Shown here one piece after another: positions 58,076-61,784 of a stretch of 64,000 nt of DNA. Made by a program: the position numbers and the translations under genes. Origin of the DNA: Escherichia phage EC.P1; the sequence record PQ657772.1. One strand, written 5' to 3'. Within the stretch, counting starts at the first letter, position 1. Each line of letters starts with the position of its first letter. Under the pieces are notes generated by a model. The model made no database searches and was not told where the DNA came from. It worked only from the letters and a program-made list of their open reading frames with translations.

Positions 58076-58099
58076 AATTTTGTTTCCTTTTATTGGTGT

Positions 58100-58158
58100 G
58101 GGGAGAACTATTCTCCCCTTGATGTAAACTATTATACAGTACTGATATACTTTGTCAA
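58100..58158 (-). promoter_or_regulatory. promoter (perfect TTGACA-16-TATAAT) plus 5'-UTR hairpin GGGGAGAA-loop-TTCTCCCC
   Basis: 65-bp block identical to 58594..58652. Confidence 0.65.
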
Positions 58159-58164
58159 ATACTT

Positions 58165-58572
58165 TTATTCGCCCATATAGATTAGATTATCATCGCCTAC
58201 ATAGGGATCGCAAACGTTGATTTCTTCGCAGTACTTAGTGAATATATCATCATAGTGACCGATATCACGATCCCAAAAACCAGTGCCGTGACCTTCGCGA
58301 GTAAGAAAGAGATCATGACCTGCATGACTATAAGTATAATCAGGATTATGGTGTTTTTGTACTGTTTCCATATCTTCACCATGTACAGCAAGGAAACGTG
58401 AACATGCAATCACTGCCGCTTGATGGGCTTGCTCTGATAATTCATAATCTTCCAGGTAATCGCCGTTCTCATTGTGTACAGTACTGAATTGCATAGCTTC
58501 AATGTAACCAGCGACCATTGCAGCATGATTTTTATCGTTGGCGATGGACCGAGCTTGATTAGTAGTAGTCAT
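58165..58572 (-). CDS. hypothetical His-rich protein
   Basis: Track ORF 135 aa; HAGHDLFLTREGHGTGFWDRD; AGGAA RBS. Confidence 0.6.
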   Translation of the reverse strand: MTTTNQARSIANDKNHAAMVAGYIEAMQFSTVHNENGDYLEDYELSEQAHQAAVIACSRFLAVHGEDMETVQKHHNPDYTYSHAGHDLFLTREGHGTGFWDRDIGHYDDIFTKYCEEINVCDPYVGDDNLIYMGE

Positions 58573-58593
58573 GATTTTATTCCTTTTAGTATC

Positions 58594-58652
58594 GGGGAGA
58601 ACTATTCTCCCCTTGATGTAAACTATTATACAGTACTGATATACTTTGTCAA
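58594..58652 (-). promoter_or_regulatory. promoter (perfect TTGACA-16-TATAAT) plus 5'-UTR hairpin
   Basis: Duplicate of the 58100..58158 cassette. Confidence 0.65.
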
Positions 58653-58656
58653 ATAC

Positions 58657-58878
58657 TTAATTACGGATAAAGTGATAAAGACCATTATCATCATTAACGC
58701 CCCATACTGATTTACCATTTAAACCAGTGAAGCCGGATTGCAATTCAATATGGAAACCGTTAGCATCAACGACGAAAACTTTTTTATTTTCATCCCGATA
58801 GCATTGATATTCTTCACCTGCTTTAAATGCTGCATCATTCAGAAGATTTGAAGCGTGAACGCAGGTCATAGTAGTCAT
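58657..58878 (-). CDS. hypothetical protein
   Basis: Start trimmed to MTTMTCVHASN (track start 58935 translates the hairpin). Confidence 0.55.
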   Translation of the reverse strand: MTTMTCVHASNLLNDAAFKAGEEYQCYRDENKKVFVVDANGFHIELQSGFTGLNGKSVWGVNDDNGLYHFIRN

Positions 58879-58900
58879 CGTCTTGATTCCTTTTAGTACC

Positions 58901-58961
58901 AGGGAGAACCATTTCCCCCTCTCGATATAAAACATTATACGCTCATTGAGATAGTTTGCAA
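58901..58961 (-). promoter_or_regulatory. promoter (TTGCAA-16-TATAAT) plus 5'-UTR hairpin
   Basis: Minus-strand read upstream of 58657..58878. Confidence 0.6.
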
Positions 58962-59006
58962 GTACTTTTTATCAAATAGTTTTCAGTACTGAATACTTAT
59001 ATAATA

Positions 59007-59096
59007 GATACACTTCCGCACCCTATGGGTCAGTGAGTTATCTCTCAATGGATATATAATAGCAAAGGGACTGACCGGAGTCAATCCCTTTTTTAA
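59007..59096 (-). repeat. conserved intergenic element copy 2 with terminator-like hairpin (59064..59091)
   Basis: Shared sequence ...GCGTATATAATAGCAAAGGGACTGACCGGAGTCAATCCCTTTTT. Confidence 0.6.
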
Positions 59097-59102
59097 TCTT
59101 TT

Positions 59103-59687
59103 TTATCGTGTTACCTTACTTGCTGCCACATCACGCTTTTTATAGTACTGATTCCAGATATTGCTGGTTAAACCGTAATCAAGTACTTTAATAAGTCCAT
59201 TACGATCCTGGCCGATATTCTGTTTTCTGATATCTCTTATCGTTAGTGTTGATAATGTATCATCAACGTGTTGTAGTGCATCAGCAAAGCGGTGCTGGCG
59301 TTCGATTGCATTACGTTTAATATTGTACTTTAATTCATTGCACGCGTTTACGTGCTTCACACTGCCTTTGCTTGCAGTACTCAACCGATCCATAACGATA
59401 AACATATTATCAGGATCGCATAAATGCATATGCACCTTTGCAAAGTACTGTTTCAACTGAGGGCGGTCATAGTCTAAAAAATTCCATACCTTACATTCAG
59501 TTTCATTTTGTTCGACACCCGCATCACAATTCGCGACCTTAATCACTAACCGATCATTTAAAGCGAATACTATACGGGAAGAACCAGCACCGATGATCTC
59601 CAGGCCAGCTAACCGACAAGCTGAAAGGATCTCTTTGTTGGTTTCCATTTCTGACAGTGTACGGATGAATTTAGTATATTTACGCAT
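59103..59687 (-). CDS. putative small protein kinase-like protein
   Basis: Gly-rich loop IGAGSSRIVF, VIKV lysine strand, catalytic-loop-like IRDIRKQNIG, DFG-like VLDYG; start trimmed to MRKYTKF with AGGAG RBS. Confidence 0.45.
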   Translation of the reverse strand: MRKYTKFIRTLSEMETNKEILSACRLAGLEIIGAGSSRIVFALNDRLVIKVANCDAGVEQNETECKVWNFLDYDRPQLKQYFAKVHMHLCDPDNMFIVMDRLSTASKGSVKHVNACNELKYNIKRNAIERQHRFADALQHVDDTLSTLTIRDIRKQNIGQDRNGLIKVLDYGLTSNIWNQYYKKRDVAASKVTR

Positions 59688-59718
59688 TGCATGTTCTCCT
59701 TGAGTTAATGAAACTATA

Positions 59719-59961
59719 TTACAGTACTTTACTATCAATGGCAACTACTTTTTTAACATTAACGGCGTGGATCACTTCCTTAGTGTTTTTAGTACTGAAT
59801 ACTTTCGCCGCTCCTTGTTCGACCGTGATACGATAGCGACCATTAACATCAACCATATTAATAAAGTCCGGCGTGCTGAATGGTGTTGTTTTACATTTGA
59901 GTACTGTTAACAGTTCCACCAGCGATGTAGTTTCTTTGATACGTTTTTCTAAAGTAATCAT
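59719..59961 (-). CDS. hypothetical protein
   Basis: Track ORF 80 aa. Confidence 0.55.
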   Translation of the reverse strand: MITLEKRIKETTSLVELLTVLKCKTTPFSTPDFINMVDVNGRYRITVEQGAAKVFSTKNTKEVIHAVNVKKVVAIDSKVL

Positions 59962-59990
59962 TTTGTTTCCCCCCGTGTTGGTATGTGTAC

Positions 59991-60270: not shown

Positions 60271-60282
60271 TTTGTTTGTCCT

Positions 60283-60309
60283 ATAAAAAAGGCGGGAACT
60301 GATCCCGCC
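60283..60309 (-). terminator. intrinsic terminator
   Basis: GGCGGGA-loop-TCCCGCC then UUUUUUA on minus transcript, after 60332..60727. Confidence 0.55.
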
Positions 60310-60331
60310 GTGTTGTTAGTACTGCAAGTTA

Positions 60332-60727
60332 TTAGATAACCTGGCGGCGTTTACTGTATACTGTTACACGATTACCCTTACGGTCGTGTCGGATCTCTTT
60401 CTGGTTGCGAATCAGTTCACTTGGACGCTTAAGGTTTGCCAGGTGATCCGCGTGAGTCCATGCATTTGCGTTAACTGTAACTTCAATATCAGAACCTTTC
60501 AAGAAGTCATCTTGAGCGTTCAGTACTTCAGCCAGTTCTTGAGCTTGCTTTAGTTCTGCTGCTGTAAGTACAGGCTCAGGTGAATTCACAATATCAGAGA
60601 TCTCTTTGAACTGTACCGCCCAGCGTTTACCAGTAGGAGAATCTTTACCCATGTCTTTAAATGTTTCACCTTCCTCACGGGCAACGATGCGAGCTTGTTC
60701 ACGGGTAGCGAAGAATTTAGTAATCAT
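60332..60727 (-). CDS. hypothetical protein
   Basis: Track ORF; start probably second ATG (MITKFF) 8 nt after AGGA. Confidence 0.55.
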   Translation of the reverse strand: MITKFFATREQARIVAREEGETFKDMGKDSPTGKRWAVQFKEISDIVNSPEPVLTAAELKQAQELAEVLNAQDDFLKGSDIEVTVNANAWTHADHLANLKRPSELIRNQKEIRHDRKGNRVTVYSKRRQVI

Positions 60728-60775
60728 GGTGTACATCCTATTAGTTAAGTTAATTAGTACTACAAGTTAGAGTCT

Positions 60776-60804
60776 ATTATAAAGTACTATCTGGGCAATG
60801 TCAA
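60776..60804 (-). promoter_or_regulatory. promoter (perfect TTGACA-17-TATAAT), no hairpin
   Basis: Minus-strand read upstream of 60332..60727. Confidence 0.6.
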
Positions 60805-60826
60805 ATAGTACTTTAAATGGATTCTA

Positions 60827-61150
60827 TTACATGTCTTTCTTACGTTTTACATCGTAGTAGCGAACTGTAATTTCTTTGTTGATCTCTTTCTCAATTCTGT
60901 GTAGTACTTTCTCTTTCGGGTTGAAACCTATTACAGTTTCCTTAATGATTTCTAAACCCGTGTACTCACCTTGTGTGCCGTAACCGTATGTAAAGGTTTC
61001 GTGTCCCAGGTCTTCCCAGCGATCACCAATCAATGCGGACACGTAGCAGGAGTGGTAAGTATTGCCGTGGCTATCAGTCCACCGATTAACTTTAATGTCA
61101 AAGGAGGTTACAATTTTCAGTTCTACTTTCTGGGTAAGGATCATAGCCAT
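60827..61150 (-). CDS. hypothetical protein
   Basis: Track ORF 107 aa. Confidence 0.6.
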   Translation of the reverse strand: MAMILTQKVELKIVTSFDIKVNRWTDSHGNTYHSCYVSALIGDRWEDLGHETFTYGYGTQGEYTGLEIIKETVIGFNPKEKVLHRIEKEINKEITVRYYDVKRKKDM

Positions 61151-61173
61151 TTTTATTTCTCTCTCTTTGTTAG

Positions 61174-61234
61174 GAGGGGAACCATTCCCCTCGCTTGATG
61201 TAAACTATTATACAGTACTAAGATACTTTGTCAA
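61174..61234 (-). promoter_or_regulatory. promoter (TTGACA-16-TATAAT) plus 5'-UTR hairpin GAGGGGAA-loop-TTCCCCTC
   Basis: About 95 bp near-identical to 61421..61510. Confidence 0.65.
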
Positions 61235-61237
61235 TAC

Positions 61238-61420
61238 TTATTTTTTGGAAAGTTTACGCATTAATTCTACGCTTTCTTGTGAACGTTTTGCTACTTGACA
61301 AGCTGCATGGGCAGTAAACATTTTTGTATAGTCTGACGCTTTGCCACCGAACCGAGCGGCACGTTCACGGGCACTTGGAACTAATACGATTTCTTTCTTA
61401 CAGATAGTGCACTTAGCCAT
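61238..61420 (-). CDS. small Cys/His-containing protein (60 aa)
   Basis: Start trimmed to MAKCTICKKEIVL...HAAC (track start 61465 translates the hairpin). Confidence 0.5.
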   Translation of the reverse strand: MAKCTICKKEIVLVPSARERAARFGGKASDYTKMFTAHAACQVAKRSQESVELMRKLSKK

Positions 61421-61443
61421 TTTAATTTCTCTCTCTTTGTTAG

Positions 61444-61505
61444 GAGGGGAACCGTTTCCCCTCACTTGATGTAAACTATTATACAGTACTAAGATACTTT
61501 GTCAA
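61444..61505 (-). promoter_or_regulatory. promoter (TTGACA-16-TATAAT) plus 5'-UTR hairpin
   Basis: Duplicate of the 61174..61234 cassette with a compensated stem change. Confidence 0.65.
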
Positions 61506-61508
61506 TAC

Positions 61509-61784
61509 TTAAGTATTGTAAATGTCGTGAATAGTGATAAAGTTTTTACGACCGTAAACATGTAAATCAGTATCAATGTAGTGCTTATCAAGTACATCCT
61601 CGACGCTTAAAGACGTGTCGTGAATATCTTCATAAAATTGTGGATCAACAATCGTGCTTAAGTCATCTGGCGTTAACTTATCGTTAAGGCATTGAACCGC
61701 CTGGATATCTGCTTCACGTTTCCATTGTTCCAGATTAGTAGTCAGTACTTGCTCGATTTCGTTAGCTGTAAGTAAAGTCCGCAT
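61509..61784 (-). CDS. hypothetical protein
   Basis: Track ORF 91 aa; AGGAA RBS. Confidence 0.6.
   Translation of the reverse strand: MRTLLTANEIEQVLTTNLEQWKREADIQAVQCLNDKLTPDDLSTIVDPQFYEDIHDTSLSVEDVLDKHYIDTDLHVYGRKNFITIHDIYNT

Follow-up and report, generated by a model that had tools for sequence, protein, structure and literature searches.

Standard promoter-hairpin cassettes before small genes in the terminal repeat of an Asteriusvirus jumbo phage, and their probable role as recombination points

Introduction

Regulatory cassettes termed PeSL (promoter-early stem-loop), which combine a promoter with a stem-loop, have been described in the T4-like phages RB49/phi1, T4/PST and KVP40/nt-1 (Arbiol et al., 2010, PMC2839356; Comeau et al., 2014, PMC4122927). 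Here we analyzed a stretch of 64,000 nucleotides of Escherichia phage EC.P1 (PQ657772.1; hereafter the window), in which an earlier note made from the sequence alone had pointed out near-identical cassettes of promoter, hairpin and ribosome-binding site in front of unrelated genes. From comparisons of the sequence with its relatives we consider it highly probable that standard expression cassettes of this kind stand before almost every small gene of a direct terminal repeat (DTR) and act there as recombination points.

The cassettes of EC.P1 share with PeSL a near-perfect sigma-70 promoter with an AT-rich upstream tract, a stem-loop made of a G-run, a loop and a C-run, and a Shine-Dalgarno (SD) site and start codon at the 3' end. 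As with PeSL, they are concentrated before small ORFans in hyperplastic regions, and genes that differ between close relatives lie between two cassettes in one genome and are represented by one chimeric cassette in the other. For PeSL, excised mini-circles with one gene and one hybrid cassette have also been described. They differ from PeSL in their carrier, a Rak2-like jumbo phage (Asteriusvirus) outside the T4-like group, and in that the array fills a direct terminal repeat. The hairpin of EC.P1 has a fixed position 12 nt past the -10 box, in the 5' untranslated region, whereas the stem-loops of phi1 lie mostly between or over the promoter boxes; it corresponds to the 'downstream of -10' class of phi1 and not to the commonest classes of that phage. 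Further differences are the absence of a terminator-like U-tract from the hairpins and the occurrence of the modules in two other phage lineages.

All close matches of the array are Asteriusvirus genomes and none is a T4-like phage, which is a difference of taxonomic scope and not of mechanism; Rak2-like phages are only distant relatives of T4, as judged by the portal protein (PMC5259590). A full-text search, which was not exhaustive, found the term PeSL only in the context of T4-like phages, with three phage papers besides one unrelated hit; the papers on Asteriusvirus or Rak2-like phages in that search did not describe such cassettes. With predicted promoters that follow the consensus and with the stem-loops in place, the array has all sequence-level defining features of PeSL; as predicted here, it fits PeSL modular shuffling in another phage group and represents no new mechanism.

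Other systems resemble the array in part. The morons of lambdoid phages are reportedly units of promoter, gene and terminator. They too are autonomous transcription units that carry an accessory gene between existing genes and are patchy among relatives, but they are isolated insertions with heterogeneous signals, whereas here a whole array is built with one standard cassette and the repeat itself provides the homology for recombination. Integron attC cassettes also form arrays of promoter-adjacent single-gene units with hairpin-forming repeats between them and variable gene content. In EC.P1, in contrast, the 20 DTR proteins that were scanned contain no integrase domain, the repeats lack the R/L-box architecture of attC, each unit has its own promoter and the crossovers are scattered. 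The pre-early region of T5 and the host-takeover module of SPO1 are arrays of early genes in terminal redundancies. These arrays and that of PA5oct (PMC7318152) likewise place numerous small genes of unknown function within a long terminal repeat, where the host RNA polymerase reads them early from strong promoters, but their descriptions concern the timing of expression and not the shuffling of genes by cassettes.

Results

Two pairs of near-identical cassettes precede unrelated genes

The small open reading frames (ORFs) in this part of the window all lie on the minus strand, and the cassettes are read on the same strand. The array and the features around its two most similar pairs of cassettes are:

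54847..64000, minus strand: cassette-rich array of small, most likely early genes; inner part of a probable ~21-kb DTR, continuing past the end of the window
58657..58878, minus strand: gene A, 73 aa, next to the gene B cassette on its upstream side
58573..58658, minus strand: cassette before gene B, with -35 at 58652-58647 and -10 at 58630-58625
58612-58594, minus strand: hairpin of the gene B cassette, GGGGAGAA-UAG-UUCUCCCC, -13.2 kcal/mol, SD site AAGGA unpaired, ATG at 58572
58165..58572, minus strand: gene B, 135 aa, no Pfam match, between identical cassettes, present or absent in different genomes
58076..58164, minus strand: cassette before gene C, with -35 at 58158-58153, -10 at 58136-58131 and hairpin at 58118-58100; 65 bp identical to the gene B cassette
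57803..58075, minus strand: gene C, 90 aa, follows the second copy of the 65-bp block, not related to gene B
61421..61508, minus strand: cassette before gene E, with -35 at 61505-61500, -10 at 61483-61478 and hairpin GAGGGGAA-ACGG-UUCCCCUC at 61463-61444
61238..61420, minus strand: gene E, 60 aa, between the copies of the ~95-bp repeat
61151..61237, minus strand: cassette before gene F, with -35 at 61234-61229, -10 at 61212-61207 and hairpin GAGGGGAA-UGG-UUCCCCUC at 61192-61174
60827..61150, minus strand: gene F, 107 aa, follows the second copy of the ~95-bp repeat, not related to gene E

A string search found the 65-nt block of the first pair exactly twice in total, at 58100-58164 and 58594-58658. 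In the second pair, which spans ~95 bp, 61144-61237 aligns with 61414-61508 with three substitutions and one 1-nt indel, and the repeat reaches into the start of gene E, through ATGGCTA. The duplicated cassettes that the earlier note had described are therefore real. Its coordinates were right to within a few bases; the ends that it gave as 58160 and 58652 fall slightly short, and the start of the second ~95-bp copy moves from 61421 to 61414. On the mRNA strand the ~95-bp copies differ by C/U in a bulge 5' of the stem, by the loop (UGG versus ACGG) and by A/U between the SD site and the ATG. A compensated substitution in the stem, which had also been claimed, is not among these differences.

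The genes behind the copies had been called unrelated, and this was borne out by an all-against-all BLASTP comparison of the 24 proteins encoded in 54,999-63,758, which gave no pair with E < 0.3. The members of each repeat pair are adjacent, and the two pairs are the most similar of all 210 pairs of cassettes in the region. The repeat pairs are real and non-random, far beyond chance.

The cassettes combine near-perfect promoters with a hairpin at a fixed position

Read on the mRNA strand, the cassette consists of an A-rich tract, TTGACA-16-TATAAT, ~12 nt (AGTTTACATCAA), a GC hairpin of 8-9 bp, ~10 nt, an SD site (AAGGA or GAGAG), ~7 nt and the ATG. In the aligned cassettes the A-rich AAAAAGTAC/ATAAAAGTAT lies directly 5' of the -35 box. 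The distance from stop codon to ATG is 63-90 nt, with AAGGA or GAGG placed 6-9 nt before the ATG, and the hairpins are of the GGGGAGAA-UAG-UUCUCCCC or the GAGGGGAA-UGG-UUCUCCCC type with a purine 5' arm. The family comprises about 40 cassettes per DTR.

Perfect matches to the sigma-70 promoter (12/12, that is TTGACA-16/17-TATAAT) occur eight times in 54,847-64,000, all on the minus strand, against 0.007 expected per strand from shuffled sequences. With a threshold of at least 11/12 there are 12 matches, again all on the minus strand, against 0.2 expected per strand. The enrichment is restricted to near-perfect matches, and a generic promoter scan with a lax threshold gave none (38 versus 32 expected). 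Perfect GC-rich hairpins are similarly concentrated, with 14 in 54,847-64,000 (0.26 expected) and only two in the remaining 54.8 kb of the window. The cassette hairpins fold with -12 to -16 kcal/mol and leave the SD site unpaired. Because the z-scores of single hairpins are only -0.6 to -3.3, the argument for the hairpin rests on its recurrence, its fixed position and the variety of its stems. A hairpin lies downstream of 91 of the 138 promoter matches in five DTR sequences, and in 88 of these 91 the stem starts 10-14 nt past the -10 box (at exactly 12 nt in 50).

The hairpins have 26 distinct stems, in which the inner pairs are G-C throughout, the G being on the 5' arm, and the outer pairs vary among G-C, A-U, U-A and C-G. 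Nearly all G.T pairs have the G on the 5' arm of the mRNA-sense strand and so are G.U wobbles in the RNA, whereas the complementary strand would give C.A mismatches. Because the wobbles are found almost exclusively in the mRNA sense, the pattern argues for a structure that was selected in the sense-strand RNA. These stems were extracted sequence by sequence; column-wise covariation was dropped, as a MAFFT alignment of 25 cassettes set the hairpins out of structural register. Rfam 15 gave no match at the gathering threshold in the window and none at E <= 1 in 54,500-64,000.

Our confidence in the exact role of the hairpin is lower than in the explanation of the cassettes as recombination points. 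Judged by the predicted structure and its place in the transcript, we give about an even chance to a 5'-terminal stabilizer that also insulates the ribosome site. Stabilizer hairpins of the ompA type reportedly occur at the 5' ends of bacterial mRNAs, and the cassette hairpin resembles them, in position only, as a stable stem-loop within a few nucleotides of the predicted 5' end and upstream of an unpaired SD site. It is possible, but clearly less probable, that the hairpin is mainly a transcription terminator or attenuator that shields each gene from upstream promoters, which is the original reading of PeSL. One PeSL stem-loop of phi1/RB49 cut the expression of lacZ about as much as rrnB T1 did (PMC2839356), the cassette hairpins have the same composition of G-run, loop and C-run, and they would also be transcribed by read-through from the upstream gene. 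However, an intrinsic terminator is a GC hairpin with a U-rich tract directly after it, and no U-tract follows any of the cassette hairpins, which have A-rich tails (ACUAAAAGG and similar). A terminator scan of the mRNA strand flagged none of them; it flagged the hairpin of a ~93-nt repeat (three copies, described below), 60309-60291 and 55701-55686. The ~93-nt repeat hairpin and 60309-60291 sit upstream of promoters, and the fixed 12-nt spacing past the -10 box places the cassette hairpins in the cassette's own transcript, which a terminator would not need.

Genes between cassettes differ among related phages

We compared the window with eight relatives for indels bounded by cassettes. Gene B is present in Ecwhy_1, vB_Ec-M-J and WPEC3 and absent from UE-S1, SD-2_S15, PBECO4, 121Q and SP27. 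In all five genomes that lack it, the flanking alignments overlap by 96-99 bp on one cassette, which has the flank of the gene B cassette on its upstream side and that of the gene C cassette on its downstream side. The switch from one to the other lies inside the identical block, or at its 3' edge, in 121Q, and 3' of the hairpin, near the SD site, in SD-2_S15, PBECO4 and SP27. Because the switch points differ between genomes, the gene B difference reflects, by these junctions, at least two independent events. UE-S1 and 121Q lack gene E (overlap 103-108 bp), and in UE-S1 the upstream flank of the E cassette is joined to the hairpin variant of the F cassette, which would place the crossover in a 43-nt identical stretch of the promoter. 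Whether gene indels in related phages are bounded by the cassettes was the check that the earlier note had proposed, and it was positive: the relatives without gene B or gene E hold a single chimeric cassette.

At other sites the window itself is the genome without the gene. It lacks, at 59958-60043, a 219-bp gene (121Q gp306) that lies between two copies of the cassette in UE-S1, Ecwhy_1, 121Q, vB_Ec-M-J and WPEC3 (overlap 73-86 bp). Similarly, gp315 and gp301 are found between duplicated cassettes in relatives and are missing from the window at 56129-56197 (overlap 69 bp) and 61803-61857 (overlap 55 bp), respectively. Four complete terminal repeats gave 56 pairwise indels, which were reduced by inspection to ~20 unique events, and in addition nine replacements. 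Junction homology of at least 40 bp was found in 30 of the pairwise indels (~11 unique events; 45-125 bp), with a promoter in every one of the homologous stretches. Genes B and E and at least nine further indels thus have junction homology of 45-125 bp.

Sequence identity to the relatives also changes from gene to gene. Gene 60736-60332 is 96% identical to its counterpart in 121Q, otherwise the most distant genome, and 85-86% identical to those of all others. Gene B is 99% identical to that of vB_Ec-M-J and 84-86% to those of WPEC3 and Ecwhy_1, the neighbouring genes of which are 99-100% identical, and gene A is 84% identical to most relatives and 91-93% to 121Q and UE-S1. Against Sharanji, identity proceeds in steps from ~85% in gene A to 100% in the cassette, a patchy 62-96% in gene B, 100% in the next cassette and 99% in gene C. 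Where the gene B cassette of the window departs from the orthologous cassette of vB_Ec-M-J, it does so at precisely those positions that render it identical to the cassette next to it. This match to the neighbour and not to the orthologue indicates gene conversion as the probable history of the gene B cassette.

Several observations weigh against recombination between cassettes as the whole explanation. About nine of the ~20 unique indels have at most 15 bp of junction homology, and cassette homology therefore does not account for all indels. The deletion of a gene for a GNAT acetyltransferase is joined at the 8-bp motif CAGTACTG (63063|63484 in SD-2_S15 and PBECO4). At 62814, an insertion of 350 bp, which consists of an SD site and a promoterless 324-bp ORF, stands exactly after the stop codon of gene 63002-62814 and has no junction homology; from its structure it appears to be of a mode distinct from the cassette-bounded events. 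Part of the cassette-bounded signal is also expected under any mechanism, because nearly every intergenic space is a cassette and selection removes events that break genes, and insertion cannot be told from deletion in these comparisons. Some of the remaining indels have their breakpoints in cassettes with diverged hairpin halves. The insertion at 62814 is carried by five of the eight relatives (Ecwhy_1, SD-2_S15, PBECO4, WPEC3 and SP27) and by fEgEco12.

The motif CAGTACTG has 44 copies in the whole window. The palindrome AGTACT has 217 copies there, in coding and non-coding sequence, against ~22 expected from base composition. It is present in most cassettes, as AAAGTACTTGCA at the -35 box and as CAGTACTGTATAAT before the -10 box, and has zero copies in 40,000-44,000.

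Convergent selection for a strong promoter and ribosome-binding site could in principle make the cassettes alike without any role in recombination, the indels being intergenic only because others would be lethal or disruptive. We think this unlikely. Function constrains the consensus hexamers and SD sites, cassettes make up nearly all of the intergenic DNA in the region, and some indels lack junction homology, all of which would suit such selection. Yet the identity spans positions without known constraint (spacer, discriminator, loop and first codons), the shorter genomes have single cassettes that are exact chimeras of both flanking copies, the top two of the 210 cassette pairs are adjacent and flank polymorphic genes, and the mosaic identity switches at cassettes.

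We regard as slightly less likely still a site- or structure-specific system, with integron-like attC hairpins or a hairpin-targeting nuclease moving the genes in place of general homologous recombination. A conserved hairpin is present in most units, and the authors of the PeSL work left site-specific recombination possible (PMC4122927). The crossovers, however, vary in position, from the promoter block 5' of the hairpin (UE-S1, gene E) to the region 3' of the hairpin near the SD site (SD-2_S15, PBECO4 and SP27, gene B) and to CAGTACTG (GNAT deletion); cassettes without a hairpin also bound indels, and the G.U pattern suggests a structure of RNA and not of DNA. Neither an integrase nor an endonuclease domain appeared in Pfam scans, which covered 20 of the 24 DTR proteins. 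For the scattered junctions and the absence of an integrase domain from these 20 proteins we rejected an integron-like reading.

Tandem duplication of a gene together with its cassette, followed by divergence of the coding parts, would explain why the copies of each pair are adjacent and in direct orientation, but it is very improbable: in BLASTP the proteins of the region show no similarity to each other, against 96-100% identity of the cassettes, non-coding sequence would not stay unchanged beside coding sequence that had lost all resemblance, and the middle gene is cleanly missing in relatives. Duplication during assembly, which would have undone the earlier note and for which the exact identity of the copies is the sole argument, has a negligible probability and is refuted by the same two-cassette arrangements in the independently sequenced Ecwhy_1, vB_Ec-M-J, WPEC3, Sharanji and A4, the copies moreover having different flanks and genes and belonging to the large family of cassettes.

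The array lies in a terminal repeat of probable immediate-early genes

In megablast searches the window was 91-98% identical to Asteriusvirus jumbo coliphages (121Q, PBECO4, Ecwhy_1, UE-S1, WPEC3 and others), and no single matching genome covered the region completely. The homologous stretch of vB_Ec-M-J is annotated as 21.5-kb 'Direct Terminal Repeats' with an inner boundary that corresponds to ~54,848 in the window, and the WPEC3 record begins at window position 54,847. We infer that ~54,850-64,000 is part of a direct terminal repeat of ~21 kb with its inner boundary at ~54,847. Terminal repeats of ~21 kb have been confirmed experimentally in fEgEco12 (PMC13070987) and predicted with PhageTerm for Sharanji (PMC11895373).

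The repeat of vB_Ec-M-J holds 53 genes separated by gaps of ~85 nt, with a promoter in ~40 of the gaps and a hairpin at the same offset in ~27. Just outside this repeat the genes overlap and cassettes are absent. Cassettes fill the DTR part of both the window and vB_Ec-M-J and end at the DTR boundary; in the window, too, the genes on the far side of it overlap and have no cassettes. A TTGACT-16-TATTAT site lies just outside the boundary, at 54807-54780.

Further cassettes and terminators of the array are:

62729..62813, minus strand: cassette with TGGACA-16-TATAAT and GGGGAGAA hairpin, before gene 62728-62516
62430..62515, minus strand: cassette with a TTGCAC-type -35, TATAAT and an AGGGGAA hairpin, before gene 62429-62256
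59958..60043, minus strand: lone promoter cassette, TTGACA-17-TATTAT, at the site of the gene missing from the window (121Q gp306)
57528..57614, minus strand: cassette before gene 57527-57264, a gene absent from 121Q (56-bp junction overlap)
56548..56637, minus strand: cassette with a perfect promoter and a GCGGGGGAA/UUCUCCCGC hairpin with a G.U pair
60291..60309, minus strand: canonical intrinsic terminator GGCGGGA-UCAGU-UCCCGCC + U6, found in the terminator scan and labelled a terminator in the UE-S1 annotation; not one of the cassette hairpins
55701-55686, minus strand: match in the terminator scan

No Pfam match was found for 16 of the 20 scanned DTR proteins. The matches, all on the minus strand, are to a ParE-like toxin domain (60016-60270, E 6e-11), a GNAT acetyltransferase (63081-63437) and a DksA/TraR C4 zinc-finger (63501-63758), together with a weak, sub-threshold match to a protein kinase (59103-59687). 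The products of these genes plausibly have functions in host takeover or conflict. In the related jumbo phage PA5oct the genes of the terminal repeat are highly transcribed early and have TTGAC/TATAATA promoters (PMC7318152), and the early region of phage CBB has RpoD-like promoters with UP elements (PMC5259590). Drawing on these two reports, we think it most likely that the DTR genes of EC.P1 are immediate-early genes read by the host RNA polymerase.

Cassettes and other elements occur in further phage lineages

Matches to the cassettes were found in other Rak2-like jumbo phages (Klebsiella Muenster, RaK2, fENko-Kae01, Erwinia Hallingskeid and Yersinia fHe-Yen9-03) and in ~145-kb coliphages of other lineages. 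Homologues of gene B are scattered in Vequintavirinae, mycobacteriophages and others. Modules of the array recur in shuffled order in phages of the Vequintavirinae and of Justusliebigvirus. Phage A73 of the Vequintavirinae contains at least eight DTR modules with 72-87% nucleotide identity in a different order. One of its cassettes is ~95% identical, as compared by eye, to one before gene 015 of vB_Ec-M-J, and the 515-nt BLAST alignment that spans it has 86% identity. The protein of muut_139 (phage muut, Justusliebigvirus) is ~93% identical to that of window gene 61784-61509, and phage A4 matched one cassette at 100% identity with a gene order that differs from that of the window.

A leader element with two promoters precedes four different genes in five compared genomes, the gene contexts being those of the window and muut, of A73, of outra and A7_1, and of a second copy in vB_Ec-M-J. 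Because this leader sits before different genes, regulatory units and coding sequences are combined independently. The earlier note had concluded that the cassette appears to move or recombine independently of the coding sequence. Recombination between cassettes, and the presence of the same elements before different genes, agree with this; we saw no sign of autonomous mobility, and the more fitting term for 'move' is homologous recombination, or gene conversion, among the repeated cassettes.

The non-coding part of this leader, ~80 nt at 61846-61934 on the minus strand (ACATCAGGACGGGGAAC...CCCCGTTAAGTAGTCCAGGAGTAAGACATACGAAAAACTCCCCTGAT), lies between a promoter at 61961-61934 and a perfect promoter at 61845-61818. 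It is 88-100% identical in 44 phage records, with two copies per terminal repeat in Asteriusvirus, and is also present in Vequintavirinae (A73, W70, A7_1 and A5-4) and Justusliebigvirus (muut and outra). It is conserved above the neighbouring genes and precedes different genes. None of the 44 records annotates an RNA or regulatory element there, although in a few of them a 'hypothetical protein' spans it. The leader is predicted to fold into three helices and has no Rfam match; it varies only in loop length and in one possible exchange of U-A for C-G (GUC/GAC versus GCC/GGC around an AGGAG loop). A scan of IMG/VR with the ~80-nt leader returned solely the 121Q genome, and RNAalifold with seven variants gave zero compensatory pairs.

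A repeat of ~93 nt occurs in three copies ~3 kb apart (56252-56344, 59012-59104 and 62019-62111). On the minus strand it forms the hairpin AAAGGGAUUGACUCCGGUCAGUCCCUUU, which the UE-S1 annotation lists as a terminator. The repeat also embeds a promoter-like site, TTGACT-17-TATTAT, and is itself followed by a small CCC-NNN-GGG hairpin. The copies lie in long intergenic regions (223-325 nt) and seem to split the DTR into blocks of ~3 kb. We rejected a reading of the repeat as a small RNA of the plus strand, as the spacing of -35 and -10 boxes is wrong there and one copy has no -10 box.

Discussion

We propose the following course of events for the cassettes. The host RNA polymerase would fire each predicted cassette promoter immediately after infection, and with initiation 7-8 nt past the -10 box the stem would begin ~5 nt from the 5' end of the mRNA. 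There the most likely effect of the hairpin would be to stabilize the message and to insulate the ribosome site; attenuation of read-through from upstream may come in addition. At the level of the DNA, the cassettes are direct repeats of 65-125 bp with high identity, and the comparison with relatives shows them as crossover points. Recombination between neighbouring cassettes would delete the gene between them and leave one chimeric cassette, while the reverse reaction, or exchange with another genome, would insert or swap a gene that is already provided with a promoter and a ribosome site. Gene conversion would homogenize neighbouring copies, which would explain the exact identity over 65 bp. 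The annotation of the Asteriusvirus phage Sharanji includes a RecA-type recombinase (PMC11895373), and a RecA/UvsX-type recombinase of the phage could provide the setting for recombination between cassettes.

A further-reaching proposal, which we regard as doubtful, is that the DTR of Rak2-like jumbo phages is a gene-capture array, with the cassette as an adaptor shared among at least three unrelated coliphage lineages (Asteriusvirus, Vequintavirinae and Justusliebigvirus). The process might then be an active one, by mini-circles or a factor that recognizes the cassette, beyond passive homologous recombination.

The array of EC.P1 carries modular shuffling by promoter cassettes beyond the T4-like phages, into the terminal repeat of 350-kb jumbo phages, and the same modules are seen crossing into two other coliphage lineages. 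For the engineering of therapeutic jumbo phages the cassettes would offer natural, tolerated insertion sites and ready expression cassettes; by the same token, gene content here will vary between otherwise near-identical therapeutic isolates. For the biology of these phages, recombination between cassettes would be a concrete mechanism for the fast turnover of small early "host-takeover" genes, probably including anti-defence and host-shutoff functions.

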